From: an uncultured bacterium
GTDB lineage: Bacteria; Patescibacteriota; Minisyncoccia; Phycocordibacterales; DATDWN01
Length of the DNA stretch: 64,000 bases
Reading direction: 5' to 3'
NCBI GenBank assembly: GCA_903870365.1
Contig: CAIQCQ010000038.1
Span: forward strand, 7,478 to 71,477
A program made the position numbers and the translations under genes. Positions 11,510 to 63,027 of this stretch are shown here, piece after piece. The stretch's first letter is position 1. Every line of letters starts with the position of its first letter. A model generated the notes under the pieces. That model worked only from the letters and a program-made list of their open reading frames with translations, was not told where the DNA came from and ran no database searches.

Positions 11510-13732
11510 ATGAAAAAGTTTATCACTAACATCACAAAAAAGTTTTCCTCCCCGCGCTTTTTGTCTGGGGTGTTGATGGTAGGGATGATGGTTGTTGTGT
11601 GTATGCCGATAGGTGTATATGCGGATCCATTGGGAACTTGTACTCTTGCGAGTGGCAACAATATGCCCAACCTCGTAACACTAACTGATTGTAATACTTT
11701 TCGTGCAGACGATATTAAAAATGGAAAAACTGGAGGTGGTTGGGTAGCAGATACAGGAGGAGCACAAGGTAATTCAGTCACCCCAGGAAATGCACCAAAA
11801 CCGTCATCATCAATAATACAGGATGTTGCAGAAGGTGCCATAAACACAATCATAGGTAACTTACTTATAGTGGTGATGGCTCTTATATCAGGACTTCTTG
11901 GTCTTGCAGGTCTTGTTTTGGACTATGTTATAAAACTAAGTGTTACAGATCTTGCAAGTAATATTAATAGTATTGCCGGTATCAATGTAGCATGGAGACT
12001 CATTCGTGATCTATGTAACATGTCTTTTATATTTATTCTCCTCTACTACGCCATCATGATGGTATTTGGACAAAAAGATGCGCGTAAAATCATTGTGCCC
12101 ATCATTATTGCCGCACTCCTCATTAATTTTAGTCTGTTTTTTACTAAAATAATTATTGATGCATCAAATATTATTACAGTGTCTTTTTATAATTCTATTT
12201 CTCAAGCAACAGGACCATCAATAGTTCTTGGAGTAAACAACACCAACACCTTTTCCGGGGCTTTTATGAAATCACTCAATCTAAGCAGTATATACTCTTC
12301 TAGTATAAAAGTTCCAGCAGGAAACTCTGGTGTATATATTACTCAAATTATCGGTAGTGCATTATTTATGCTAATTGCTTGTTTTATTTTTCTTGCAATG
12401 GCGGTTCTTTTTATCATTCGTTACCTCACATTTATTTTACTCCTTATCATGTCACCGTTCGGATATGTTGCTTCTGCTATTCCAGGATTAAACGGTCTTT
12501 CAAAAAAATATTGGGAGACACTCACAGGTCAAGCACTTTTTGCTCCGATATTTATGATTATGATTTGGATTACACTGACTTTGGCTAGTAGTTTTACAAT
12601 GGCAACGGGAACAAGTGCAGCAAGTCTTGGTGCTGCTTTTTCCAACCCATCATCAACCACAATCGGAACAATGGTAAATTTCATTTTACTTGCAGGACTA
12701 CTCATATATTCACTTATTATTTCAAAAAGCTATGCAACTCAGGGGGGAATTGTTAGTGGAAAAATAGTCGGGGCGGGAATGGGTATGGCTGGAGGGGCGT
12801 TGTTTGGAGGCGCTTCATACCTAGGCACACGTAGTTTTGGAAAACTTGGAACAATGGCGGCTAACAATGATAGCCTGCGAGAAGCTGCGAGTAAAAAAGG
12901 TGTTGCCGGATCCATGGCAAGACTTAGCCTTAAAACTGCTCAAACTGCACAATCATCGTCCTTTGATGCTCGAAATATATCCGGTTTTGGAAAAGCAACT
13001 GATTTTATAGGGGCTGGTAGTTTTGGTAAAAAGGGTAATGCTCCAAAAGGGTATAAGGGTGTGTTGGATGACAAACAAAAAGCTTACAACGAAGCGGATA
13101 AAAAACGTGCAGAGGGGCTAAAGGTGACTGACACAGTGGCTGATGAAGCAAAGAAAAAACTTGATAAAGAAAAAACACTTAAAGAAGAAAACGCCAAAAA
13201 CTTAGACAATGAAATTGATCTTAAGAAGAAACAAAATAATGATTTAACTCAAGAAATCACAAATCTAGAAAAAGATTTGAAAAAGGCCGTTACCCCAAGA
13301 AAAAGAGCCCGAAACAAAGGAGAAATTTATAGACTACAGACAGTTTTAGAAGACAAAAGATCTACAATTTCAGAATCAAGAGAAAAATTAGCTCAAATAG
13401 AGAAAAATAAAACAAACTTGGATACCGATTTCAATGCTCGTGAAGATATTAAAAAACTTATAAAAGATTCTGGTGGAGATAAAGATAAAAAAATATCAAG
13501 TACAAGTGACGATAGAATAAATTCATATGCTAATACTGTTGGTGATCAAAAAACACGAAATTTTGTCATATTTAATCCTGAATTTAATAAAGAAAGAGCA
13601 CGAAAGATACGTAAACTTGCAAAAACAAAATCAACAAAAGAAACACTTGAAGAGCTTCTCAAAGAAAATGGTGATATAAAAAAAGATGATAAAAAAGAAG
13701 AGACACCTGTAGCAGAACCAAAAACAACATAG
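11510..13732 (+). CDS. Polytopic membrane protein, VirB6/TrbL-like candidate, with long K/E-rich coiled-coil tail
   Basis: Signal peptide, at least 6 predicted TM segments between residues 110 and 420, C-terminal 300 aa of charged heptad-like repeats; call is from genomic context with VirB4, PrgI and pilin genes. Confidence 0.45.
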   Translation: MKKFITNITKKFSSPRFLSGVLMVGMMVVVCMPIGVYADPLGTCTLASGNNMPNLVTLTDCNTFRADDIKNGKTGGGWVADTGGAQGNSVTPGNAPKPSSSIIQDVAEGAINTIIGNLLIVVMALISGLLGLAGLVLDYVIKLSVTDLASNINSIAGINVAWRLIRDLCNMSFIFILLYYAIMMVFGQKDARKIIVPIIIAALLINFSLFFTKIIIDASNIITVSFYNSISQATGPSIVLGVNNTNTFSGAFMKSLNLSSIYSSSIKVPAGNSGVYITQIIGSALFMLIACFIFLAMAVLFIIRYLTFILLLIMSPFGYVASAIPGLNGLSKKYWETLTGQALFAPIFMIMIWITLTLASSFTMATGTSAASLGAAFSNPSSTTIGTMVNFILLAGLLIYSLIISKSYATQGGIVSGKIVGAGMGMAGGALFGGASYLGTRSFGKLGTMAANNDSLREAASKKGVAGSMARLSLKTAQTAQSSSFDARNISGFGKATDFIGAGSFGKKGNAPKGYKGVLDDKQKAYNEADKKRAEGLKVTDTVADEAKKKLDKEKTLKEENAKNLDNEIDLKKKQNNDLTQEITNLEKDLKKAVTPRKRARNKGEIYRLQTVLEDKRSTISESREKLAQIEKNKTNLDTDFNAREDIKKLIKDSGGDKDKKISSTSDDRINSYANTVGDQKTRNFVIFNPEFNKERARKIRKLAKTKSTKETLEELLKENGDIKKDDKKEETPVAEPKTT

Positions 13733-13734
13733 AC

Positions 13735-14592
13735 ATGGATGAATCAACACAAGAGATAAAAGAATATATCGATAAACTCCCAAAACCACTCCAACAAGCG
13801 GTGCTTGGACAGGACTGGCACAAACGATTAGCTGAGATTAGTCAGAAATATTCACTACACCTGGACCAGATTTCATCACTGGAATACGAAGTGTTGTTTG
13901 TCATGATTGGTATGGAACCAGAAACAGATTTGGTGTCCAACATTCAAACAGAATTGGCAGTATCAAAAATCCTCGCTGAACAACTGGCAGGGGATATTAA
14001 TGTGCGAATTTTTCAATTTATTATGAAGTCGTTGGAAGAAAAAACGCCAGAGAAAGTAGAAAGGTTTGTGGAGTCGAGTAACGAGATAAGAGATACAAAT
14101 AAGGAGAAAGAAAATATACAAATACCCGAACAAGAAGATTTACCATCATTTCCACCTGTGGTGAGTGTACCAGCATCAGTGACTATACCGAGTCCACAAG
14201 TCATTGCGGTACCACAACAAACTATTCAAAAGGAAATTATTCCTATGGCTATGGAGACTCCACATCAAAAAATTACTGAACCACCAGTGAATTTGCCGGG
14301 GGAGGAAATAGTAGATGGAATAAAGAATGACGAATTAAGAATTACGAATAATGGGGAGGAGAACAGAATCTCGAATCTAGAAGCTGGAATTAAGAATGAT
14401 GTTATTGAAAATACTGTTCCATTCGTAATTCGTAATTCTGACATCGTAATTCCACAAAAATCATCCCTCGCTGACACCAAACTCAACTCCATTGTTACCT
14501 CTACGAGTGAGACTGTGGTTAAAGAAACACCTGCTCCTACACCAATTGTAAAAAGTTATGCGAGTGATCCATATAGGGAAGCGATAGAATAA
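13735..14592 (+). CDS. Hypothetical protein carrying an in-frame heptamer-repeat segment
   Basis: No TM; residues NDELRITNNGEENRISNLEAGIKNDVIENTVPFVIRNSDIVIP are encoded by repeat family 3 (14317-14453). Confidence 0.4.
   Translation: MDESTQEIKEYIDKLPKPLQQAVLGQDWHKRLAEISQKYSLHLDQISSLEYEVLFVMIGMEPETDLVSNIQTELAVSKILAEQLAGDINVRIFQFIMKSLEEKTPEKVERFVESSNEIRDTNKEKENIQIPEQEDLPSFPPVVSVPASVTIPSPQVIAVPQQTIQKEIIPMAMETPHQKITEPPVNLPGEEIVDGIKNDELRITNNGEENRISNLEAGIKNDVIENTVPFVIRNSDIVIPQKSSLADTKLNSIVTSTSETVVKETPAPTPIVKSYASDPYREAIE
14317..14453. repeat. Heptamer-type palindromic repeat, family 3, in frame within CDS 13735..14592
   Basis: Left arm ggaataaagaatgacgaattaagaattacgaataatgg, right arm ccattcgtaattcgtaattctgacatcgtaattcc. 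Confidence 0.55.
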
Positions 14593-15253: not shown

Positions 15254-15688
15254 ATGCGTTTTCAAGTTCCACAATTTATTGAAATAGAGGACAAAGTTAT
15301 TGGCCCACTAACCATCAAACAATTTGTTTACCTTGCTGGTGGTGCGGGCATGGCTTTTGTGGCATATACATTTCTCCCTGGATTTATCGCTCTGTTTGTT
15401 ATTGCGGGCATCATTGGTTTGGCTCTTGCTTTAGCTTTTTATAAAGTAAACAACAAACCATTCATTGATATGCTCGAGTCTGCGTTTGGTTTTTACACTG
15501 GAGAAAAACTATACATCTGGAAAAAAGTAGATAAAAAAATAATTCCAAAAGAACAAGCGACCGGACAAGAAGAACTTCGTGAGGTATACGTACCTCGTTT
15601 GTCAGATAGTAAATTAAAAGAATTGAGTTGGAGTTTAGATGTAAATGAAAATTTAGGAGGAGGGAAAGAGACAAGAGATAAGAGATAA
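15254..15688 (+). CDS. PrgI-family (VirB3-like) small membrane protein
   Basis: IEIEDKVIGPLTIKQFVYLAGGAGMAFVAY followed by a second TM helix; the last residues ETRDKR are encoded by repeat family 1. Confidence 0.5.
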   Translation: MRFQVPQFIEIEDKVIGPLTIKQFVYLAGGAGMAFVAYTFLPGFIALFVIAGIIGLALALAFYKVNNKPFIDMLESAFGFYTGEKLYIWKKVDKKIIPKEQATGQEELREVYVPRLSDSKLKELSWSLDVNENLGGGKETRDKR

Positions 15689-15760
15689 GAGATACGAACA
15701 AAAAATATCCTACTCATTTTTCTTATTTCATATCTCTTATCTCAAATCTCATATCTCTAT
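15665..15760. repeat. Heptamer-type palindromic repeat, family 1, no cargo
   Basis: Left arm gagacaagagataagagataagagatacg, right arm tcatatctcttatctcaaatctcatatctctat, about 30-nt loop. Confidence 0.6.
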
Positions 15761-16444: not shown

Positions 16445-16868
16445 TATAGAGATAAGAGATTTGAGAAATGAGATATGAAAAATCCATCTGATGAAAAAGA
16501 AACAATTAAAAAATTTTCTGATTTATCTGCATGGCAAGAGGGCCACCGTCTTGTAATTCAGGTATACACCATAACAAAATTTTTTCCTAAAGAAGAATTA
16601 TTCGGAATTACAAACCAAATCAGAAGAGCTGTTGTTTCTATTACTTCAAATATTGCGGAGGGTTTTGGTAGAGGAACAAGTCAGGATAGAGTTCATTTTT
16701 ATATTATAGCAATCGGATCACTTAATGAGGTGCAGAATCAGTTGCTTATATCAAAAGATATCGGTTATTTAAATCACACAGAATGGAATGAATTAGAAAA
16801 ACAAGGTATCATTGTACACAAGATACTCAGTGGTTTGATTAGAAAATCCAAATCAAATCTCTTATCTC
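16445..16868 (+). mobile_element. Inverted-repeat-flanked cassette with a four-helix-bundle gene inserted in virB4
   Basis: GAGATAAGAGATTTGA at 16449-16464 and its perfect reverse complement TCAAATCTCTTATCTC at 16853-16868 bracket CDS 16475..16879. Confidence 0.5.
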
Positions 16869-16879
16869 AAATCTCATAA
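16475..16879 (+). CDS. Four-helix-bundle protein (23S rRNA intervening-sequence protein family)
   Basis: WQEGHRLVIQVYTITKFFPKEELFGITNQIRRAVVSITSNIAEGFGR...SLNEVQNQLLISKDIGYL is the family signature. Confidence 0.75.
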   Translation: MKNPSDEKETIKKFSDLSAWQEGHRLVIQVYTITKFFPKEELFGITNQIRRAVVSITSNIAEGFGRGTSQDRVHFYIIAIGSLNEVQNQLLISKDIGYLNHTEWNELEKQGIIVHKILSGLIRKSKSNLLSQIS

Positions 16880-16889
16880 CTCTATTCAC

Positions 16890-18695
16890 ATGTCCCTACT
16901 CGATTTTTTAAAAAAGAAAGAACCTCTCCAGATCACCTCTATCCTGCCACAGGAAATATACGAGGCGGGCGCTTTGGAGTTGGCTGATGTTATCGCTCCA
17001 TCAGCACTCAAAATCAGTCCAAAAGAACTCAACTTGGGTGAAAAAATCGTCCGATCGTTTTTTGTTATCTCATATCCACGATATCTCAATGAAAGTTGGT
17101 TTGCGCCGATCATTAATTTGGACAAAGTTTTTGATATTTCCATCTATATAGAGCCGATTGAAACAGCCGCTGCACTCAAATCCTTTCAGAAAAAAGTGGC
17201 CGAGGTGCAAAGTCAAATCATGACTCGAGAAGAAAAGGGTTTGGTCCGAAACCCCATGCTCGATACTGCATATCAAGACCTCGAGCAACTTCGTGACAAT
17301 CTCCAGCAAGCCCAGGAGAAGCTTTTTAATGTTGGAGTGTATATCACTATGTATGGCGACAAGACAGAGGAGCTCGACAAAATCGAATCTGAAATCAAAT
17401 CTATCCTCGAAGCCAAGCTCGTGTATGTCAAACCCGCTCTCTTTCAACAAGAGCAAGCCTTTAAAACTGTGATGCCTGTTGCGACCGATCTTCTTGGTGT
17501 CTATAGTAAACTTAATTCTTCACCCCTCTCATCACTCTTTCCTTTTATTTCTTTTGACCTGACTTCTGACAAAGGTATTTTGTACGGCGTCAACCGCCAC
17601 AACTCATCCCTCGTCCTCTTTGATCGTTTTTCTTTGGAAAACTATAACTCTATTACCTTTGCAAAGTCTGGTTCCGGAAAATCATACGCTACCAAGCTGG
17701 AAATCTTGCGAACCCTCATGTTTGATACCTCGGTCATGGTTCTCGACCCAGAAAATGAATATGAGTACATGGCTGAAGCTGTTGGTGGACGACATTTCAA
17801 TATCTCACTCAACTCTGAACACCACATCAACCCCTTTGACCTGCCAATACCGACAGAAGGTGAGTCCTTTGCCAATGTCTTACGATCAAACATCGTCAAC
17901 CTTGTTGGACTCTTTCGTATTATGATGGGAGGTCTCACGCCAGAAGAAGATGCGATCATTGACCGAGCTATCACTGAAACATATGCACTAAAAGACATAA
18001 CTGCTGATTCTGATTTTACCAACACCGAGCCACCACTCCTCTCTGATTTTGAATTGGTGCTCTCTGGTATGGAAGGGGGGGATTCACTGGCTCAACGATT
18101 GACAAAATACACCAAGGGTACTTGGGCTGGTTTTATCAACCGTCCCACAAACATCGACATCAACAAAAAGTTTGTAATTTTTTCTATCCGTGACATGGAA
18201 GACGAGCTCAAGCCGATCGCTATGTATATCATCATGCATTATATCTGGGCAGCTATCCGACGTGACTTGAAAAAACGTCTCCTCGTCATTGATGAAGCCT
18301 GGTGGATGATGAAATCAGAGGACACCGCATCATTCCTCTTGTCACTCGCAAAACGGGGCCGAAAATACTACCTTGGTGTAGCTACTATTACCCAAGACGT
18401 GGATGACTTTTTGAAGTCACCGTACGGTCTACCGATCATCACCAACTCATCTATCCAAGTCTTACTCAAACAATCACCATCATCTGTCGACAAACTACAG
18501 CAAACATTTAACCTGACAGACGAAGAAAAATATTTACTCCTCGAATCAGCTGTGGGGGAGGGTATATTCTTTGCTGGTCTCAAACATGTGGCAATCAAGA
18601 TTATTGCCAGCTACACCGAAGATCAGATCATCACCTCTGATCCAAGCCAGATTTTGGCAATCAAGAAAGCGAAGATGGGATTGGCTAAGAGTTAA
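16890..18695 (+). CDS. VirB4/TraE-family T4SS ATPase, C-terminal part with ATPase domain
   Basis: Walker A FAKSGSGKSYATK, Walker B RLLVIDEAWWMM, ITQDVDDF; its N-terminal 200 aa (IAPSALKISPKELNLGEKIVRSFFVISYPRYL) match the second half of the VirB4 N-domain. Confidence 0.85.
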   Translation: MSLLDFLKKKEPLQITSILPQEIYEAGALELADVIAPSALKISPKELNLGEKIVRSFFVISYPRYLNESWFAPIINLDKVFDISIYIEPIETAAALKSFQKKVAEVQSQIMTREEKGLVRNPMLDTAYQDLEQLRDNLQQAQEKLFNVGVYITMYGDKTEELDKIESEIKSILEAKLVYVKPALFQQEQAFKTVMPVATDLLGVYSKLNSSPLSSLFPFISFDLTSDKGILYGVNRHNSSLVLFDRFSLENYNSITFAKSGSGKSYATKLEILRTLMFDTSVMVLDPENEYEYMAEAVGGRHFNISLNSEHHINPFDLPIPTEGESFANVLRSNIVNLVGLFRIMMGGLTPEEDAIIDRAITETYALKDITADSDFTNTEPPLLSDFELVLSGMEGGDSLAQRLTKYTKGTWAGFINRPTNIDINKKFVIFSIRDMEDELKPIAMYIIMHYIWAAIRRDLKKRLLVIDEAWWMMKSEDTASFLLSLAKRGRKYYLGVATITQDVDDFLKSPYGLPIITNSSIQVLLKQSPSSVDKLQQTFNLTDEEKYLLLESAVGEGIFFAGLKHVAIKIIASYTEDQIITSDPSQILAIKKAKMGLAKS

Positions 18696-18765
18696 GAGAT
18701 GTGAGACCTGAGAAACGATAGACATCATATATTTTTCTCTTTTCTCTTTTCTCATATCTCTATTC
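18690..18765. repeat. Heptamer-type repeat, family 1, degenerate copy
   Basis: gttaagagatgtgagacctgagaaacgatag ... ttctcttttctcttttctcatatctctattc. Confidence 0.45.
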
Positions 18766-18768
18766 AAC

Positions 18769-19188
18769 ATGGCAGAACAACAATATCAAAAAAGGCCGTT
18801 ACCCCAAGAAAAAGAGCCCGAAACAAAGGAGTTGAGTATTGGCAATTGGATGTTAAAAGGTTCTGTCGCTCTGTTTTTTGATACAACAGGAGCTTTGATA
18901 AATCTCCTACCTGTGGCAGGCCAAATTCTTGAAGAATTTAACGATCTATTTGCTGACGGAGTTTTTTTATTGTGGTTTACCCTTGATGGTGTCAAATACT
19001 CAAAAAACACTATGTTTGGTAGTTTTGTACTGAAATTTATACCTATATTAAATATGCTACCAGAATACACACTTATGATTATCATTATGTATATGAAATC
19101 AAAAAAAGACGCTGCGGTGAGAAAAACTGTCGGTGGTGGCAGTATTGCCCGTACCATTGCAAACCAAAACAAAAGTCCCAACGCATAG
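18769..19188 (+). CDS. Small membrane protein
   Basis: Two or three hydrophobic segments; N-terminal 43 nt are identical to 13280-13322. Confidence 0.4.
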   Translation: MAEQQYQKRPLPQEKEPETKELSIGNWMLKGSVALFFDTTGALINLLPVAGQILEEFNDLFADGVFLLWFTLDGVKYSKNTMFGSFVLKFIPILNMLPEYTLMIIIMYMKSKKDAAVRKTVGGGSIARTIANQNKSPNA

Positions 19189-27377: not shown

Positions 27378-27414
27378 CTTTTTCTTATCTCGTAACTCAT
27401 ATCTCTAAACTCTA
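27378..27414. repeat. Heptamer-type repeat, family 1, solo right arm upstream of start codon 27420
   Basis: ttcttatctcgtaactcatatctctaaactctatccag then ATG. Confidence 0.45.
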
Positions 27415-27419
27415 TCCAG

Positions 27420-31845: not shown

Positions 31846-32331
31846 TTAACTTCGGTTTTTAAAATCTGATGCAAAAAATGTTAATCCAATAGCAATTGCG
31901 TCAAACTCATCATCTGAACTTATTTTTTTATCTACCACAATCAAACGAGGAACCATGAGGGCAATTTGTTTCTTTTCACTTCGCCCATATCCGGTGACCG
32001 CTATTTTGATTTGAAGCGGAGTATACTCATAAATAGAAAGATCTGCAACTGTCGCTTCATAGAGGATGACACCACGGGCTTCGGCCACAGCCAGAGCTGT
32101 TTTTTGGTTGGTATTAAAGAAAAGTTTTTCGATACTTAAGCACGTCGGTTTCCATTCTTCGATAATATTATGTACTTTTTGACCAATAAGGAAAAGTCTT
32201 TCAGGGTGGGGGAGTTTGGCTGAGGTTTTAAAGCATTCGGAATAGAGGAGTGTTTCTTTGCCACGAGGGATTTTCTCCAAAATTGCAATTCCAACTCTTT
32301 CATAACCTGGGTCGATTGATAGGATAATCAT
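31846..32331 (-). CDS. ruvC: Holliday junction resolvase RuvC
   Basis: MIILSIDPGYERVGIAIL...; RNase H-like fold with catalytic D/E pattern. Confidence 0.85.
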   Translation of the reverse strand: MIILSIDPGYERVGIAILEKIPRGKETLLYSECFKTSAKLPHPERLFLIGQKVHNIIEEWKPTCLSIEKLFFNTNQKTALAVAEARGVILYEATVADLSIYEYTPLQIKIAVTGYGRSEKKQIALMVPRLIVVDKKISSDDEFDAIAIGLTFFASDFKNRS

Positions 32332-32335
32332 AATT

Positions 32336-32513
32336 TTAAATTTCGAATTTCCAATTTCGACATTGTTTTCTTACGAGCAAGACGAGTTAGAAATACAAGA
32401 AGTACTCTTGTGGTGGAAACAATTTCGAATTTTTGAATGATTAAATTTAAAATTAATTCATTAAAACATTGTTTCGAAATTCAAAATTCAAAATTCGAAA
32501 TTCGAAATTTATC
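32336..32513. repeat. Heptamer-type palindromic repeat array, family 2 (GAAATTC/AATTTCG)
   Basis: aatttcgaatttccaatttcgacattgttttc ... ggaaacaatttcgaatttttgaatgatt ... acattgtttcgaaattcaaaattcaaaattcgaaattcgaaattt; three mutually complementary blocks. Confidence 0.6.
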
Positions 32514-38377: not shown

Positions 38378-38869
38378 ATGAAAGAATCCATTACCAGTGC
38401 AGAGGCAATGAAAGGTTTCGCTGATAAATTTTTGTCACGTATACAACCGCGGGGTAAGACGGCTACTGTGGTGGGTCTGTATGGTGACCTTGGTGCAGGT
38501 AAGACGACATTTACTCAAGCTGTAGCTGAGGCACTAGGCATTACAGAGTCTGTAGTTAGTCCGACGTTTGTTATAATGAAAAGGTATGAGATAAGAGATA
38601 TGAGACACGAGATACGAGAGGAAAAATCAAACGTAAATCAAATCTCAAATCTCATTTCTCATTTCTCAACATTATTTCACATTGATGCGTACCGTTTGGA
38701 GAAAAGTTCTGAACTTCTCAATCTTGGTTGGTCTGATATTATTTCTCATCCCGAGAATTTGATTTTGATCGAGTGGCCAGAGCGGGTGGCGGATGTGATG
38801 CCAGAGCATATTAAAATTAATTTTACTCATGTGTCAGAGAATGAGCGGGAAGTGGAAATAATAGATTAA
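38378..38869 (+). CDS. tsaE: tRNA t6A37 biosynthesis protein TsaE, with in-frame repeat insertion
   Basis: P-loop GLYGDLGAGKTTF, SPTFVIMKRY, IDAYRL, LIEWPE; about 25 extra residues EIRDMRHEIREEKSNVNQISNLISHFS come from repeat family 1. Confidence 0.8.
   Translation: MKESITSAEAMKGFADKFLSRIQPRGKTATVVGLYGDLGAGKTTFTQAVAEALGITESVVSPTFVIMKRYEIRDMRHEIREEKSNVNQISNLISHFSTLFHIDAYRLEKSSELLNLGWSDIISHPENLILIEWPERVADVMPEHIKINFTHVSENEREVEIID
38586..38668. repeat. Heptamer-type palindromic repeat, family 1, in frame within tsaE
   Basis: atgagataagagatatgagacacgagatacgagagg ... aaatcaaatctcaaatctcatttctcatttctc. Confidence 0.65.
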
Positions 38870-43040: not shown

Positions 43041-43212
43041 TCGTGTGCGCCCAGCAAGGTGATCTCCCTCGAATTTTCAAAATCGTCATTTTGAAAATTC
43101 TGGGCACCAGATTGGCGACAAACTCTACTGATTTCGTATACCGCCAATCTGTTCGATCCCTAACACAAAGCTTTGCTTTGTTCTGGTGCCACAAAATTCC
43201 TTTGAAATTTTG
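43041..43212 (-). mobile_element. Miniature tRNA-3'-end-associated structured element (copy L), bounded by a direct repeat of the tRNA-Lys 3' end
   Basis: Begins right after tRNA-Lys and ends with CCTTGCTGGGCGCACA (43044-43061, versus tRNA 3' end CCTGCTGGGCGCACA); 88-nt core shared with 52521-52701; four perfectly paired hairpins. Confidence 0.55.
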
Positions 43213-43285
43213 TGCGCCCAGCAGGGATCGAACCTGCGACCTTGTCCTTAAAAGGGACCTGCTCTACCGACTGAGCTATAGGCGC
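43213..43285 (-). tRNA. tRNA-Lys, anticodon UUU
   Basis: Reverse complement GCGCCTATAGCTCAGTCGGTAGAGCAGGTCCCTTTTAAGGACAAGGTCGCAGGTTCGATCCCTGCTGGGCGCA folds as a cloverleaf. Confidence 0.85.
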
Positions 43286-45500: not shown

Positions 45501-46466
45501 TTACTGTTGATGCACGGAACAAAAGTGTGTGGATCGTCCACCGATGATTTTGCGAAGAATAACGCCAGAGCATCCACGCTTTTGACATGTCTTGCCGGTC
45601 TGGCGGTATGCTCGGTGCGAGTTTTGATAACCACCACGCTCACCATGAATGTTGCGGTAATCTGACATTGAGTCGCCACCGACGGTAATGGAGTGGGAGA
45701 GGATGCGACGGGCGTGCCAGAGGATATTGCGCACGTCTTTGTCAGATAGTTTTTTGACTTGTCGTTCGGGGTGGATGCCAGAGGCCCAGAGGATTTCGTC
45801 AGAGTAAATGTTGCCAATACCGGCGATGATTGTTTGGTCCATCAAGACTGTTTTGATTTTACCAGCAGGTTTTTTGGACAAGCGATCTTTGAGGATGTTC
45901 CACGTGATACTGAGGTCATTGGCTTCTGGACCTAGAGTGGTGATGTCGGCGTGGTCACGAAGGATACCAGTTTCTACCAGAGTGACTTTGGCAAATTTGC
46001 GCATGTCGGAGAAAGCGAGGGATTTGCCGTTGTCGAATTGGATGAGAAAGTGGATGAATTGATTAAAGGGATCAGATAAGTGCTTATCCGAGCTTATCCA
46101 CTCATAATTACGCTCTGATGTTTTTGTTTTCTTAGCATCCTCCTTAATTTCTAATTTCGAATTTCTAATTTCTAATCTTTCATATTTTCCATAGAGTAAA
46201 TGGCCAGTCATTTTCATATGTATCAACACTGTTTTATTGCCAGACAGGTGTATTAGCACATTTTTTCCTCGCCGCTCGGCCGAGACAAATTTTTTCCCGG
46301 TAATTTCTTTTTGAAAACGTTCAAAAAATGTTTTGTTTTTAATAGTGTCCGTCCGTTTGTTTTTGGTGTTCACAAAATAGTCCGTCCAGACTAGAGCGAC
46401 GGTGTGATTTTTCAGAACTTTGTTCAGACCATTGACGGTCGTTTGGACTTCGGGTAACTCTGGCAT
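45501..46466 (-). CDS. fpg: Formamidopyrimidine-DNA glycosylase (Fpg/MutM), with in-frame repeat insertion
   Basis: N-terminal MPELPEV, H2TH, C-terminal zinc finger CQKRGCSGVILRKIIGGRSTHFCSVHQ; about 40 aa longer than typical because of KLEIRNSKLEIKEDAKK from repeat family 2. Confidence 0.85.
   Translation of the reverse strand: MPELPEVQTTVNGLNKVLKNHTVALVWTDYFVNTKNKRTDTIKNKTFFERFQKEITGKKFVSAERRGKNVLIHLSGNKTVLIHMKMTGHLLYGKYERLEIRNSKLEIKEDAKKTKTSERNYEWISSDKHLSDPFNQFIHFLIQFDNGKSLAFSDMRKFAKVTLVETGILRDHADITTLGPEANDLSITWNILKDRLSKKPAGKIKTVLMDQTIIAGIGNIYSDEILWASGIHPERQVKKLSDKDVRNILWHARRILSHSITVGGDSMSDYRNIHGERGGYQNSHRAYRQTGKTCQKRGCSGVILRKIIGGRSTHFCSVHQQ
46142..46177. repeat. Heptamer-type repeat, family 2, in frame within fpg
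   Basis: ccttaatttctaatttcgaatttctaatttctaatc. Confidence 0.6.
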
Positions 46467-52448: not shown

Positions 52449-52520
52449 TGCAGCCGTCGTTCAATGGATAGGACACTCCCCTGCGAAGGGAGAAATGCAG
52501 GTTCGATTCCTGCTGGTTGC
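52449..52520 (+). tRNA. tRNA-Arg, apparent anticodon GCG
   Basis: GCAGCCG/TGGTTGC acceptor with two G-U pairs, anticodon stem CTCCC/GGGAG, loop CTGCGAA, T-arm GCAGGTTCGATTCCTGC. Confidence 0.65.
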
Positions 52521-52701
52521 ACAAAAAAACAGAAATCGCCACGGGCGGTTTTTGTGCAACCAGAACAAACCAAAGGTTTGTGTCAGGAATCGAACAGATT
52601 AGCGGTGCACGAGCTCAGTAGAGCTTGTCGCTAATCTGGTGCCCAGGATTTTGTTAACGGTTGTATTACAAAATCTGAGGGAGATATTCCTCCTATTGCA
52701 C
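52521..52701 (+). mobile_element. Miniature tRNA-3'-end-associated structured element (copy R), bounded by a degenerate direct repeat of the tRNA-Arg 3' end
   Basis: Immediately 3' of tRNA-Arg; 15-bp hairpin CTGGTTGCACAAAAA/TTTTTGTGCAACCAG; core 88 nt about 86% identical to copy L with compensatory stem changes; ends GAGGGAGATATTCCTCCTATTGCACA versus tRNA GATTCCTGCTGGTTGCACA. Confidence 0.55.
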
Positions 52702-52710
52702 AAAACAAGC

Positions 52711-55611: not shown

Positions 55612-57213
55612 ATGCAGGATGAGTGGTACAATCAGAATTATATGATTCAATTAAAATCTTTTTTTGTAAAAATATGGAATTTTTTGAAAACAAAATGGGG
55701 CATACTCATCATCATCCTTCTTTGTGTACTTGGGTATGTTATTTTTCACAAAAAAACTGTTCCGCACACACTCATTACGGTAACTAAAGGGTCTGTTACA
55801 GAAACAGTTTCAGTCACCGGTAATACCACACCAACACAAAGCGTTGCTCTTGGTTTTCAGAACGGTGGAACTGTCTCTTCTGTATCTACTCGTGTTGGAG
55901 ATACTGTAGTTGCTGGTCAATTACTCGCGTCACTCAATACCAATGATCTGGCAGCACAATTACAGCAAGCACAGGCTAATGTCGATGGACAACAAGCCAA
56001 GCTAGACAGTTTGAAAGCTGGCTCACAACCAGAAGATATTGCTAGTAGTCAGGCTGCTCTTGCAAAAGCAAGTCAAGATTTGGCTAATATGTACAGTAGT
56101 ATTAGTGATATTTCCAATGATGGGTATGCCAAAGCCAACGATGCTGTTCGTACACAAATCAGCAGTCTGTTTTCCAATGCAGAAAATAATAGTATTCAAT
56201 TTACTTTTGCCAGTAGTAATTCGCAGCTCGCATCGAATGCAAAAACAGAACGCCTGACAGCTGCGACATCATTGAATACGTGGCAAACTGAATTACTTGG
56301 AGTGAGTTCAGTATCAACACATACTGATTTGGATACAGCGGTCAATGACGGTCTTGGATATCTTGCTCAGATTCGACAAATGCTTCTGGATGTTTCAGGT
56401 ACACTCAACAGCGCAACAAATATAGATACAGTCACGTTGGCGACAGATAAAAATGCAGTAACCAGTGCGCTGACTGAAATAAACACTGCAACAAAAAATT
56501 TGAATACTGTTGCACAGAGTATCGCTTCACAAAAACTAATTGTGGCACAGGCTCAAGCTCAGTTAGATCTCAAACAAGCAGGTTCAACACAAAACGATAT
56601 TGATGCACAACAAGCACAAGTAGAACAGGCCAAGGCTGGTGTAGCCAGTATTCAGGCAAAAATATCAAACTCTTTGATTTACTCACCGATCTCAGGTGTG
56701 GTGACACAGTGTGATGCAAAAGTTGGTCAAATTGCTAACCCAGGAGTGACTGTTATTTCTGTCATTTCCAACAGTCAGTTTGAAGTGGATGCTCTTATTC
56801 CGGAAACAGATGTGGGTAAAGTCGCAGTGGGGGACCCCGTGACCATGACTTTTGATGCATTTACAGAGAAGACATTTACCGGCAAGTTGTTTTACATTGA
56901 TCCTGCTCAAACGGTGACTCAGGGTGTTGTTGATTACAAAATAAAAGTATCGTTTGATACTGCCGATCCACAAATGAAAAGTGGTTTGACTGCAAATTTG
57001 ACTATTCAAACACAGACACATACTGGAGTACTTGTCTTACCACAATATGCCATTTTGCAAAATGATACAGGAAATTTTGTAGATATTCTTGTGGGTGGAG
57101 TATCTACTTCAACACCAGTGACGCTCGGTATTTCTGATCAAAATGGAAATATAGAGGTGACCTCTGGGGTGACCGAGGGAGAACAGGTGTTGAATATTGG
57201 ATTGAAACAATGA
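55612..57213 (+). CDS. Efflux periplasmic adaptor / membrane fusion protein (HlyD/MacA-like)
   Basis: N-terminal TM, long coiled coil (QLQQAQANVDGQQAKLDSLKAG...), beta-barrel and lipoyl-like segments. Confidence 0.7.
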   Translation: MQDEWYNQNYMIQLKSFFVKIWNFLKTKWGILIIILLCVLGYVIFHKKTVPHTLITVTKGSVTETVSVTGNTTPTQSVALGFQNGGTVSSVSTRVGDTVVAGQLLASLNTNDLAAQLQQAQANVDGQQAKLDSLKAGSQPEDIASSQAALAKASQDLANMYSSISDISNDGYAKANDAVRTQISSLFSNAENNSIQFTFASSNSQLASNAKTERLTAATSLNTWQTELLGVSSVSTHTDLDTAVNDGLGYLAQIRQMLLDVSGTLNSATNIDTVTLATDKNAVTSALTEINTATKNLNTVAQSIASQKLIVAQAQAQLDLKQAGSTQNDIDAQQAQVEQAKAGVASIQAKISNSLIYSPISGVVTQCDAKVGQIANPGVTVISVISNSQFEVDALIPETDVGKVAVGDPVTMTFDAFTEKTFTGKLFYIDPAQTVTQGVVDYKIKVSFDTADPQMKSGLTANLTIQTQTHTGVLVLPQYAILQNDTGNFVDILVGGVSTSTPVTLGISDQNGNIEVTSGVTEGEQVLNIGLKQ

Positions 57214-57220
57214 GATAGAA

Positions 57221-57293
57221 GTACGAATTAAGAATAATGATGTACGAATGAGAGGAGATATTATTTTTCTTGTTCGTTATTCTTAATTCGTAC
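57221..57293. repeat. Heptamer-type palindromic repeat, family 3
   Basis: Perfect 17-bp inverted repeat GTACGAATTAAGAATAA / TTATTCTTAATTCGTAC. Confidence 0.65.
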
Positions 57294-57308
57294 ATCGTAA
57301 TTCTACCT

Positions 57309-58019
57309 ATGATTGAAGTTACAAATCTTACAAAAGAATATTTAGAAGGAGAGACTCCAACAACTGCTCTGAAAAACATAACCTTTTCTATTGCGAAGGG
57401 GGAGTTTGTCTCTATCATGGGTCCATCGGGATCAGGTAAATCAACTTTGCTCCATGTATTGTCTTTTCTTGATCGGCCGACAGGTGGGACGTATACTTTT
57501 TTGGGAAAAAGTATGAATGACATGGATGATGCTGAGCTTGCTCATGTCAGAAATGCTGATATGGGGTTTGTGTTTCAGTCCTTTAATTTGTTGTCACGGT
57601 TGACCGTCTATGACAATGTGGAAATTCCTTTGTTGTATTCCACTGTACCCGAAGAGAAACGAAAAGATTTGATTGAAGATGCGGTTAAGGCAGTTGGTTT
57701 AGAAGAAAAAATGCACAGTGAAGCCGGACGCTTGTCTGGAGGGCAAAAACAGCGTGTGGCTATTGCTCGAGCATTGGTGACCAACCCCGATGTTATCTTT
57801 GCTGATGAACCGACGGGTAACCTTGATTCTGTGTCTGGAGCACAGGTTATGGATATTTTGGAAAAGTTGCACGACAAAGGCCGAACGATTGTTTTGGTCA
57901 CCCACGAAACATATACGGCAGAATTTGCTAATAGAATTATTCGTGTTAAGGATGGTCAGATTGAGAGTGATGTGCCGGTATTAAAGTCACGACATACGAG
58001 ACAGGAGTTTATTAAATAG
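57309..58019 (+). CDS. ABC transporter ATP-binding protein (MacB/LolD/FtsE family)
   Basis: [37 protein letters not shown]; ATG at 57309 preferred over the ORF-track start at 57270. Confidence 0.85.
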
Positions 58020-58029
58020 GTAATAATAG

Positions 58030-58116
58030 AATTACGATGTACGAATTAAGAATGACGAATAAGAAAAACAAGATCTTCTCTTATTCGTACATCGTACGTC
58101 TTCATTCTTAATTCGA
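58030..58116. repeat. Heptamer-type palindromic repeat, family 3
   Basis: acgatgtacgaattaagaatgacgaataaga ... tcttattcgtacatcgtacgtcttcattcttaattcg, centred on AAGATCTT. Confidence 0.6.
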
Positions 58117-58121
58117 CCAAC

Positions 58122-61288: not shown

Positions 61289-61375
61289 GGATGAGTGGCC
61301 GAGTGGTTTAAGGCAACAGTCTTGAAAACTGTCGTGCTCGAAAGGGTACCGTGAGTTCGAATCTCACCTCATCCG
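61289..61375 (+). tRNA. tRNA-Ser, anticodon UGA
   Basis: GGATGAG/CTCATCC acceptor, anticodon loop CTTGAAA, long variable arm, T-arm GTGAGTTCGAATCTCAC. Confidence 0.85.
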
Positions 61376-61675
61376 CATCTCAGATAAAGTAAGGTTTTTA
61401 GGTGATAAAGCGATAGGCATATAGATGTTTTTGAATTGCCATTGAGCCACATTTTGCTTTTCGATACTTGCGTTCGAAAGTAACTTTTTAAGCATAGTAC
61501 GTTTTTCTACATCATTAACAAGCAAATACTTTTCTGTGGCTCTACTAGACTCTAGAAAGACATCTTTGATCTGTTCGAGAGTAACTTGAGATACACCGCC
61601 TTTTGCCTGTATTTCAGCGATTTGGCTATTTAGTACAACTCTCTGATTCTCAATCTCGATAATTCTGGAAACACT

Positions 61676-61951
61676 ATGCAGTTTGATTCTAGGACTGTCA
61701 CTAATGGAATTATAAGTGCTTATGATAACTCAATTAAATTTCAAAACTGGGGATTTACGACCACAGGTTCACTTCCGTATGGAAATTATTTTGTAACAAA
61801 TACAATAGATCATGGAAATTCCGGAGGTATAGCGATTTCAAAATATAATGGTAATTTGTGTGTACTTGGCATACCTACATGGCTAAACGCAGGAGTTAGT
61901 AATAATCAGGGTATAGTTCAAAATATTCAAAATGTTATGTACGTAAAATAA
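61676..61951 (+). pseudogene. Trypsin-like serine protease C-terminal fragment
   Basis: 91 aa; GNSGGIA resembles the GDSGG active-site box; no N-terminal His/Asp region upstream in frame. Confidence 0.35.
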
Positions 61952-61958
61952 TCGAATA

Positions 61959-62687
61959 ATGAAAAATGATTTGGATGCGACAAAAGAAAAACTCATAGAA
62001 ATACTTAGTCAAGAAAAGGGATATTTTGGACGTGTGCGCACGTGGGGACAAAGACCAACAGAATATGAATACATAGGTTATGAGTTGACAGAAGATTTTT
62101 TACCCACTTTACAAAAAATATCTGACGAACAACGAAAGAATCTTGTGATGATAATGTATTATTTTGAGATGCACGTACATCCCCTTAGGGATTTATTGGA
62201 AACGAAACAAAAAAATCAACTTGATAAACTTTATTCTGAAATAGCGTGGTCTCATTTTATGACAGTTGTTATGTTTGGGATGTTAGAAATTGCAGTGAAA
62301 GGTGAAAGAGGTGTCTGGTTGGGTGAAAAAGGGAAGAAAATAAAGAAGTTTTTACAAGATAATTTATCAGATAAAATTAAAGAAGATATAGCTGAAAGAT
62401 ATAAGGTTGATAAAATTTTTGATTATAAAAAAGAAGTCAAGAGTTTTTCCGATGTCATTGATCATATGTGGTCTCAAATTAGGTCTGGATTTATTCATGA
62501 TGCAGGAATCGAATCAAAAGGCCTTGAGTGGAATACGTTTGAGGGAATTGGTACAAAAGAAAACCCGATAACCATTAGATCAGATGTGCCTATTCAAGAA
62601 TGGTTACAGATTACATGGCAAGCTATTTTAAATTCATATGGTTACAAAGGTTTATTAAAACTTCCGAAATACAAAAGAAATACCTAG
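61959..62687 (+). CDS. Hypothetical protein with HEPN-like Rx4H motif (islet cargo)
   Basis: 242 aa, mostly helical; WSQIRSGFIHDAG contains R-x4-H. Confidence 0.35.
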   Translation: MKNDLDATKEKLIEILSQEKGYFGRVRTWGQRPTEYEYIGYELTEDFLPTLQKISDEQRKNLVMIMYYFEMHVHPLRDLLETKQKNQLDKLYSEIAWSHFMTVVMFGMLEIAVKGERGVWLGEKGKKIKKFLQDNLSDKIKEDIAERYKVDKIFDYKKEVKSFSDVIDHMWSQIRSGFIHDAGIESKGLEWNTFEGIGTKENPITIRSDVPIQEWLQITWQAILNSYGYKGLLKLPKYKRNT

Positions 62688-63027
62688 TTACTACTATTAA
62701 GTGGAAAAAACCTATTTGATATGGTTTAATGACTGCATTACTAAAGCTATTCGGACATCGTCCCACACTCCCCGCATTTTTGAACGCAGGGAAAAACTTT
62801 GGATGAAACAAAATTGAAGATTTTGTGTGTGAGATTAGAACGACGGAGCGATTCTTGGCTTAGTAAAGCCAAGACGCGAGTCGGTGCCCAGACCAAAAAT
62901 TTCTGACGAGAAATTTTTGAGTTGCGGGAGAAAAGCGTACTCGCGGTCTCACCTCATCCGCATTGTAGTAAAAAATTGAGAAGGAACTTTCGTCTAATCT
63001 CCACCGAAACTTAGTATACTTGTATAT

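Follow-up and report, generated by a model that had tools for sequence, protein, structure and literature searches.

Islands that integrate into tRNA genes carry a signature made of the tRNA and a tRNA fragment. Their attP spans ~250 bp, their sub-sites lie in the T-loop or at a junction, transfer-messenger RNA (tmRNA) genes are used as well, tandem arrays occur, and integrase-less islands borrow a recombinase (PMC4383910). We analyzed a 64-kb stretch of DNA from an uncultured bacterium of the Patescibacteria, or candidate phyla radiation (CPR), on contig CAIQCQ010000038.1; "the window" hereafter means this whole stretch. The subject is a short non-coding element directly behind a tRNA-Arg gene, which we call copy R, and the family to which it belongs. 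As in Islander-type tRNA/tmRNA islands, an intact tRNA and a displaced direct 3′ fragment mark the ends, the repeat runs from a fixed T-loop point to the tRNA end, tmRNA genes are used, tandem arrays are found, and the size is near that of a bare attP. Unlike those islands, the element is ~180 bp long without an integrase or any gene, it holds an internal inverted attachment copy and a phylum-wide covarying single-strand core, and one element family uses dozens of tRNA species.

Integron attC and CTX-phage attP(+) are folded single-stranded sites, and CTX attP(+) uses the host XerCD. The element resembles both in that two inverted site copies anneal within one strand into a duplex target, the fold is strand-specific, structure is kept over sequence, no recombinase is on board, and two direct copies and one inverted copy stand at the site after integration. 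Across the family, inverted core-site copies within one strand are able to anneal as in attC-type sites. Unlike attC and attP(+), the element targets a tRNA gene instead of dif or attI and has an extra conserved two-hairpin core; its folded strand may be DNA or RNA, and its recombinase would presumably act in trans.

The geometry of a tRNA gene, an insert and a displaced 3′ fragment therefore led us to read the family as miniature integrase-less integrative elements. We lean towards a mobile element that sits at a T-loop sub-site of the tRNA and is mobilized in trans, by a mechanism that we infer.

A structured element family behind tRNA genes

Copy R belongs to a ~170-190-nt non-coding family located at the 3′ ends of tRNA and tmRNA genes across Patescibacteria. 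The order of its parts is constant: the tRNA 3′ end, a hairpin H0, a hairpin P2, a segment antisense to tRNA positions 53-65 (anti-T), a hairpin P3, the joint GGUGCCYAG, a hairpin P4, the joint GARGGA and a copy of tRNA positions 57 to ~75. We derived a family pattern from four copies (ATCGAAC...GGTGNCYAG...GARGGAGWT) and searched species-representative genomes. At least 119 genome stretches matched, nearly all of them from CPR; L numbers below label individual genome stretches. The lineages among the matches listed were Paceibacterota, Nomura-, Kaiser-, Zambryski-, Moran-, Jorgensen-, Taylor- and Vogelbacteria, Microgenomatus and Saccharibacteria-labelled metagenome-assembled genomes. Among the 129 matches listed, 96 stood 20-90 nt behind a same-strand tRNA, and at least 25 anticodon types were represented. 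Two copies lay behind tmRNA genes (L040, L070). Two more followed tRNAs that ARAGORN missed because group I introns interrupt them (L017 4346-4591 and L105 412-676, both on the - strand). A profile search added 23 further copies outside the family pattern. A stricter first pattern that required the window-type P3 had given 0 genome matches, since this P3 is a minor subtype. Core similarity was higher within than between genomes (0.70 versus 0.62, p = 4e-6), with several pairs at 0.87-0.89.

We aligned the cores of 110 distinct sequences. RNAalifold predicted 30 pairs, and 27 of them showed double changes. Paired cells amounted to 92.3% compared to 63.9% in shuffled alignments, and double-change cells to 961 compared to 291. 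The covariation score was 0.711; shuffled alignments gave 0.216, none of 500 reaching the observed value, and slid partners gave 0.10-0.15. The pair 171:211, which joins the Y of GGTGCCYAG to the R of GARGGA, was CG in 85, UA in 20 and UG in 4 sequences, and the two joints therefore extend P4. The joints and the tetraloops AGYA, GACG and CUGC resemble RNA motifs.

Comparing sense and antisense folding energies gave ambiguous results for P2 and P4, and we used column-wise pair counts instead. Tallying the pair types, we found a G·U to A·C ratio of 19:1 in well-aligned core pairs near the junction. The mismatches in the H0 arms were G·T in 21 cases and A·C in 2, so the pairing has been selected on the sense strand. 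The folding strand is the tRNA-sense strand, be it RNA or single-stranded DNA. The same two ratios (19:1 and 21:2) favor the tRNA strand and rule out that the opposite one gives a functional RNA. Hammerhead, hepatitis delta virus (HDV)-like and group I readings were also rejected: the junction strands do not fit, there is no pseudoknot, and Rfam gave no match. Searching Rfam 15, we matched only tRNAs, at gathering thresholds across the window and, apart from chance matches, at E up to 10 for the first two copies, R and L. In a phage genome collection the tRNA part alone was matched.

A second family, family B, was seen at L133 4131-4277 (- strand), L118 6270-6370 and L110 5290-5400. It shares the H0/P2/anti-T module and a terminal ...AGAT followed by the tRNA repeat. 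The core is another, shorter one, in which ATCGAAAACC precedes a hairpin and ...GAAAGAT follows, and family B can stand in tandem with the main family. LOOT RNA (RF03000) occurs in three of the loci, not adjoining the element: L045 4127-4249 (-), L074 6959-7075 (+) and L110 1320-1444 (-).

Copies R, L and S in the window

The tRNA-Arg gene (anticodon GCG; 52450-52522, + strand) was called by ARAGORN and scored 60.3 bits as an Rfam tRNA; it is the target gene whose positions 53-75 the element mirrors. The original prediction had described a tRNA-associated mini-element behind it as the second copy of one found elsewhere in the window. This proved right: 52550-52652 is 86% complementary to 43094-43196, which amounts to a same-sense core of 103 nt. 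The predicted interval, 52521-52701, covers the element, which we place at 52523-52705 (+ strand). Its H0 stem already begins inside the tRNA, at 52513.

By folding and by family statistics, H0 occupies 52513-52563. Its 5′ arm (52513-52527) consists of tRNA positions 65-73 and the trailer CAAAAA, its loop (52528-52548) holds a small CGCC/GGCG hairpin, and its 3′ arm (52549-52563) forms the antisense of both trailer and acceptor 3′ strand. As read from the sequence, CTGGTTGCACAAAAA pairs with TTTTTGTGCAACCAG over 15 perfect base pairs around a 21-nt loop; the full hairpin has a predicted energy of -26.5 kcal/mol. The perfect stem at the tRNA-Arg 3′ end is therefore present as had been claimed, and it takes in the last 9-10 nt of the tRNA. 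P2 follows at 52565-52581 (ACAAACC-AAA-GGTTTGT), located at the point of the antisense arm that corresponds to the junction of tRNA positions 65 and 66. Comparison with copy L shows a compensatory change from G-C to C-G in P2, and helices 1-2 covary family-wide. The anti-T segment TCAGGAATCGAAC (52583-52595) is complementary to tRNA-Arg positions 53-64 in 12 of 13 bases. Each anti-T fits its own tRNA: AGGAATCGAAC stands behind tRNA-Arg (T60) and AGGGATCGAAC behind tRNA-Lys (C60). P3 is a long hairpin of type 2 (52595-52638), with AGATTAGCG...CGCTAATCT, an inner stem, an AGUA loop and the closing pair C52595:G52638. Copies R and L differ here by two or three compensatory changes, and more such changes occur across the 110 sequences. 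The conserved joint GGTGCCCAG (52638-52646) contributes the CC that pairs with the GG of GAGGGA. P4 (GATTTTGT...ACAAAATC; 52647-52676) is unlike copy L in sequence and retains the structure. GAGGGA (52677-52682) is the last element-specific sequence. A degenerate direct repeat of the tRNA-Arg 3′ part then starts from position 57 (GATATTCCTCCTATTGCACAAAA; 52683-52705). Only TTGCACAAAA is intact (10/10), with partial matches besides, and copy R reads as an ageing, somewhat decayed family member with a decayed distal repeat. The tRNA-Arg together with copy R gave a folding z of -7.4 against shuffles. All parts of copy R lie on the + strand.

The original prediction had further proposed that the 15-bp hairpin could serve as an intrinsic terminator and couple tRNA 3′ end formation to the element. 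The coupling of the hairpin to both tRNA end and element is borne out by the family-wide H0 statistics given below. The terminator role is not: the bases next to the stem are AACAAACC, no U-run follows, and a simple consensus terminator scan made no call. We regard it as very doubtful that the hairpin sets the tRNA 3′ end as a terminator and that the remainder is a passenger repeat. The best candidate for termination lies within the H0 loop, where a small GC hairpin (CGCC-ACG-GGCG, 4-5 bp of GC) precedes TTTTTGTG; it is only weakly terminator-like (-13 kcal/mol). A canonical terminator of A-run, GC-stem and T-run forms the H0 apex in 26 of 85 relatives, and the stems of native tRNA terminators in relatives likewise include the final tRNA bases (L006; distal hairpins). 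Such a hairpin with a T-run also follows the distal repeat in 18 of the 85. However, copy L and most relatives have no H0 terminator, the arms are longer than termination requires and always end at tRNA position 66, and anti-T, P3, P4 and the direct repeat stay unaccounted for. Terminator-like hairpins being confined to a minority of copies, termination is therefore optional loop cargo and not the defining role of the stem.

Copy L (43044-43211, - strand) lies behind tRNA-Lys (43213-43285, -) with the same architecture as copy R. It includes GAGGGAGAT (43070-43062, -) and a perfect direct repeat, TGCTGGGCGCACA (43056-43044, -; 13/13), next to which stands a native terminator hairpin. The tRNA-Lys and copy L together gave a folding z of -8.5. 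Two core motifs of 14-18 nt each occur exactly twice in the window, with a chance expectation of 0.07-0.28.

Performing a covariance-model search of the window with a model built from the 110 relatives, we recovered copy L (91.6 bits), copy R (80.2 bits) and a third copy at 62792-62938 (86.4 bits), which the original prediction had not contained. This copy S spans 62768-62959 (+ strand). A degenerate tRNA-3′ fragment is followed by P2, the anti-T GTGAGATTAGAAC, P3, GGTGCCCAG, P4, GCGGGAGAA, a small hairpin and the repeat TCTCACCTCATCCGCA. Its antisense arm and a perfect repeat (16/16) fit tRNA-Ser (61289-61376), which lies 1.4 kb upstream. Between the two are an open reading frame (ORF) for a trypsin-like protease fragment (61676-61951) and a 242-aa ORF without a Pfam match (61959-62687). 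The arrangement looks like a small island, or like a later insertion that displaced the element from its tRNA. In total, three of the four tRNA genes in the window are tied to a copy.

Could the element be a product of chance or an ordinary repeat, such as a REP-like (repetitive extragenic palindromic) sequence or the remnant of a local duplication? It is short, AT-rich, intergenic and palindromic. However, more than 120 related copies are spread over different CPR genomes with strong covariation, the folding z-scores are -7.4 and -8.5, and the motif matches are far above chance. We give this explanation next to no weight; the extent of the family, the third copy and the covariation refute it. 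The element does resemble MITEs (miniature inverted-repeat transposable elements), REP/BIME sequences (BIME, bacterial interspersed mosaic element) and the IS200/IS605-derived palindrome-associated transposable elements (PATEs) in being small, non-coding, multi-copy, hairpin-rich and non-autonomous, and in its intergenic place behind genes. Unlike in these elements, its "terminal inverted repeats" copy the target and are therefore different from locus to locus, its ~19-bp tRNA-anchored repeat far exceeds the target duplications of transposases, its position and orientation to tRNA genes are strict, and the family is phylum-wide. We found neither terminal inverted repeats of its own nor the short fixed target duplication of DDE transposases, which define a MITE.

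The tRNA genes themselves showed some peculiarities. The tRNA-Arg of the window lineage has the anticodon GCG, not the usual bacterial ACG (52450-52522; also L008 and L133-L135). After the discriminator base, tRNA genes of this lineage encode "CA" instead of CCA. The 3′ parts of tRNA-Lys and tRNA-Arg (43208-43237 and 52497-52526) are identical at 27 of 30 nt, with the T-stem CCTGC in both, whereas these two tRNAs differ in their T-stem in relatives (CCAAC vs CCTGG). G·U pairs occur in the acceptor stems of both tRNAs of the window.

Matching of each copy to its own tRNA

We measured target matching in 85 non-redundant tRNA-adjacent copies. The anti-T segment was complementary to tRNA positions 53-65 in 13 of 13 bases in 41 copies and in at least 11 of 13 in 79 copies. 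At its six variable positions, the score with the own tRNA was 5.16, compared to 3.60 with shuffled pairings (maximum 3.89 in 1000 shuffles). Anti-T also follows the T-loop variants TTCAAGT, TTCGAAT, TTCAATT, TTCAAAT and TCCGACT in copies outside the pattern, and it fits tRNA positions 53-56, which lie outside the repeat (L054). The direct repeat matched positions 60-75 at 16 of 16 in 28 copies and at 14 of 16 or better in 54 copies; the own tRNA scored 13.4 and shuffled pairings 9.0. For any T-loop sequence, the repeat starts at position 57, right after GARGGA. Since the element ends in GARGGA followed by a tRNA copy from position 57, the direct repeat equals tRNA positions 57 to ~75.

Antisense to the acceptor strand is optional, with at least 8 of 10 matches in 34 of the 85 copies. 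In 33, an H0-type hairpin begins exactly at tRNA position 66, with arms of 8-31 bp, and these hairpins stop 24-25 nt before anti-T, which is the length of P2. The internal antisense (53-65, and 66-75 in ~40% of copies) is thus complementary both to the tRNA 3′ part and to the distal repeat. Related cores at different tRNAs each carry their own matched arm, as in L021/L084 and in copies L and R of the window.

Such matching could also be produced by a guide. In a guide-plus-scaffold homing element, P2/P3/P4 would form the scaffold, and the split antisense arm, or the flank-transcribed 3′ repeat as in TnpB omega-RNAs, would act as the guide. By pairing with the tRNA gene, the guide would steer a nuclease, recombinase or ribozyme activity in trans to insert or reinsert the element at 56/57. 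TnpB/IscB omega-RNA and IS110 bridge RNA are guide-RNA scaffolds of mobile elements, and the element is like them in combining a constant scaffold of ~100-150 nt with short target-matching segments, one of them from flanking DNA. The constant structured scaffold with variable segments exactly fitting the target, the ~19 nt of target-identical sequence right after the scaffold 3′ end, the correct arms of closely related scaffolds at different tRNAs, and the boundary fixed just after the near-universal T-loop GTTC all agree with a guide. However, no TnpB, IscB, IS110-type or Cas gene lies near any copy; those systems encode the RNA beside its recombinase or nuclease gene within an insertion sequence, and we found no gene of this kind in the window or near the loci. 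The element is also unlike those RNAs in having no Rfam similarity (no omega-RNA, HEARO or ribozyme match at E up to 10), and unlike the loops of IS110 bridge RNA in that both its antisense segments pair with the same strand. Guide and repeat are mutually complementary and would pair intramolecularly, and the mechanism is entirely conjectural. We consider this homing scenario improbable.

A related proposal needs no protein of the element's own. Here the RNA or DNA strand, with its scaffold and a split guide pairing with T-arm and acceptor, would itself select insertion at 56/57; the arm would be re-templated for each target, and host enzymes only would be used. We think a protein-less, self-targeting mobile element of this kind quite unlikely, if less so than guided homing.

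Gain, loss and the integrative reading

Comparing orthologous loci, we found the element present in some relatives and absent from others at the same tRNA. L006 and L008 are empty at the tRNA-Lys locus, which lies between holA and spoU; the window has a type-2 element there and L003 a type-1 element. In both empty loci, the tRNA-Lys block stands inverted with respect to the window. The terminator hairpin after the bare tRNA-Lys of L006 is homologous to the flank behind the distal repeat of copy L. At the tRNA-Arg(GCG) locus, L134 is empty, family B stands in L133 and a type-1 variant in L135, and both L008 and the window have type 2. Tandem and nested copies also occur: two elements with three perfect repeats in L124, two families one after the other in L118, L110 and L022, and four elements within a tRNA cluster in L054. 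Orphan copies, with no tRNA within several kb, stand downstream of island-type cargo such as SIR2_2 with a HerA-type ATPase, DUF4238, or AAA_25 with a SocA/Panacea antitoxin; the cargo loci are L110 1936-4708, L077 6295-7539, L045 4302-6314 and L074 5289-6215.

Three single loci should be recorded here. In L074 only, a Xer-like tyrosine recombinase lies 2.7 kb from the orphan copy. In L034 (2571-2878), two copies stand head-to-head around a single perfect H0 palindrome that both share, without a tRNA in between, and this pair is either a genuine fold-back dimer or an assembly chimera. In L008 (4706-4852, - strand), a decayed copy stands 5′ of tRNA-Lys and opposite to it in strand; it scores 38 bits and has no T-arm antisense.

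These comparisons agree with an Islander-type element. Copies L, S and R each have an intact tRNA and its cognate direct 3′ fragment, the crossover sub-site is fixed at T-loop position 57, and presence and absence differ at the same tRNA between related genomes. On the integrative reading, insertion would regenerate the tRNA gene and displace its 3′ fragment, the crossover having its boundary at T-loop positions 56/57, and a recombinase encoded elsewhere would presumably move the element in trans. The inverted copy of the attachment sequence would let a single sense strand refold into a duplex that mirrors the tRNA 3′ end, with the conserved P3/P4 core flanking it. This strand might be single-stranded DNA during transfer or a read-through transcript, and the machinery would probably recognize it in the folded state. 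The 15-bp hairpin of copy R would then be the proximal half of the fold, the tRNA-matched arm.

Several observations weigh against such an element. It contains no ORF, and the island-encoded tyrosine integrase of Islander-type islands is missing: PF00589 was absent from the scanned window ORFs of at least 150 aa, and Pfam scans found no integrase, transposase or reverse transcriptase among them. No recombinase, transposase or reverse transcriptase was found in or beside the elements. All-vs-all clustering of 1323 ORFs revealed no protein family enriched near the 119 loci listed; the clusters reflected housekeeping synteny only (LepA, MurE-like, RuvA, Fpg and a penicillin-binding protein). We saw no excised circle and no recent identical copy. 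A double-stranded attP needs no covarying hairpins, so that the single-strand step is an added assumption, and an integrase model alone fails to explain the matched antisense arms of related cores (L021/L084, copies L and R). In cases of difference between the two repeats, the fit to the tRNA 5′ strands was better for the proximal copy (21 cases) or equal (2 ties), and never better for the distal one; we thus have no direct sign that a 3′ half brought by the element replaced the native one. Loss via the direct repeats could likewise account for presence and absence at orthologous sites. Finally, the family pattern had 0 matches in viral contigs, and looser patterns gave only chance matches, as a check by nhmmer and the covariance model showed; no phage vehicle is thus known. 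An origin from a primer-binding site or a mature tRNA template was rejected as well: the repeat and the antisense arm include the non-CCA trailer, therefore the gene was copied, not the mature tRNA.

The same data bear on a different idea, that the element is a cis-acting RNA module of the host. It would be a conserved 3′ trailer, co-transcribed with the tRNA, that controls tRNA 3′ maturation or punctuates transcripts, and that is inherited vertically with frequent loss via the repeats. In precursors that arise by read-through, its antisense arms would base-pair with the T-arm and the acceptor strand. The element and the distal repeat would jointly fold into a tRNA-shaped minihelix, made up of an acceptor-like stem, P2 (replacing the D and anticodon arms), a T-like stem and an expanded P3/P4 loop, to be processed by RNase P, RNase Z or RNase III. 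Consistent with a host RNA, the position directly behind the tRNA on the same strand is constant, the sense strand folds with G·U tolerated in H0 and core, the predicted minimum-energy folds join the element to the tRNA 3′ half, anti-T reaches positions 53-56 beyond the repeat, and the joints and tetraloops look like RNA motifs. However, the element is dispensable, as the orthologous tRNA-Lys and tRNA-Arg of close relatives have none. Related genomes carry differing subtypes and a second family at the same tRNA, tandem arrays and orphan copies occur, and same-genome cores are more alike than orthologous ones. The terminator-like hairpins between tRNA and core in 26 of 85 copies would limit co-transcription. 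We rate a host RNA module as possible but unlikely.

Known structured RNAs next to or within tRNA genes offer partial parallels. Plant-mitochondrial t-elements, mascRNA (the MALAT1-associated small cytoplasmic RNA) and HDV-like "theta" ribozymes behind phage tRNAs are tRNA-like signals or tRNA-adjacent ribozymes. Like these, the element would be a structured RNA directly 3′ of a tRNA, with a closed fold in which an acceptor-like and a T-like stem end in the tRNA's own 3′ sequence. Unlike them, it has no Rfam 15 ribozyme match and no apparent nested double pseudoknot, and each copy has a tRNA-specific antisense arm and a direct repeat. The group I introns of CPR are also selfish structured RNAs common in CPR tRNA genes, with internal exon complementarity (PMC13011429), and they co-occur with the element in L017 and L105. 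Unlike the element, which sits behind or at the T-loop-to-3′ end, these introns lie in the anticodon loop at 35/36 and match RF00028; the element is smaller, has no P3/P7 pseudoknot, and leaves its tRNA complete without splicing. The CPR tRNA intron survey treats group I introns at position 35/36 and makes no mention of the element (PMC13011429). We found no description of the element in the literature and no Rfam family for it. We rate it as previously unlisted and as a variant within the known class of tRNA-gene-integrating elements; that it is categorically new is a minority reading.

Other features of the window are as follows. Its genes include Pol I, HolA, SpoU, Fpg, RuvABC, DnaA/DnaN and ABC transporters. 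Among named organisms, Candidatus Zambryskibacteria and Parcubacteria are the best relatives, and the DNA belongs to a CPR chromosome from an ENA metagenome scaffold. Many intergenic regions hold 7-nt periodic units that form inverted repeats, e.g. AAGAGAT x4 facing ATCTCTT x4, or GAATTAC/GAATGAC. They lie at 15666-15760, 16446-16480, 16853-16899, 18687-18763, 27383-27415 and 38572-38670, and further ones at 14307-14455, 57201-57314, 58026-58117, 32331-32509 and 46141-46186. Some pairs bracket whole genes (57218-57305 and 58027-58114 around the ORF at 57270-58019). A perfect 43-nt direct repeat, AAAAAGGCCGTTACCCCAAGAAAAAGAGCCCGAAACAAAGGAG, ends two gene blocks 5.5 kb apart (13280-13322 and 18789-18831).

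Patescibacteria have genomes of ~1 Mb with little spare DNA, yet one pattern returned well over a hundred copies of the element. If mobile, it would be the smallest tRNA-gene-integrating element known to us. It would offer a system for asking how a geneless insert finds tRNA genes and rebuilds their 3′ ends, and it would account for CPR genomes in which tRNA ends and island boundaries are mis-called. As a host RNA, it would represent a new, abundant and phylum-specific class of structured RNA tied to tRNA maturation. On either reading, the 110-sequence alignment with its strong covariation is fit for an Rfam-style family.

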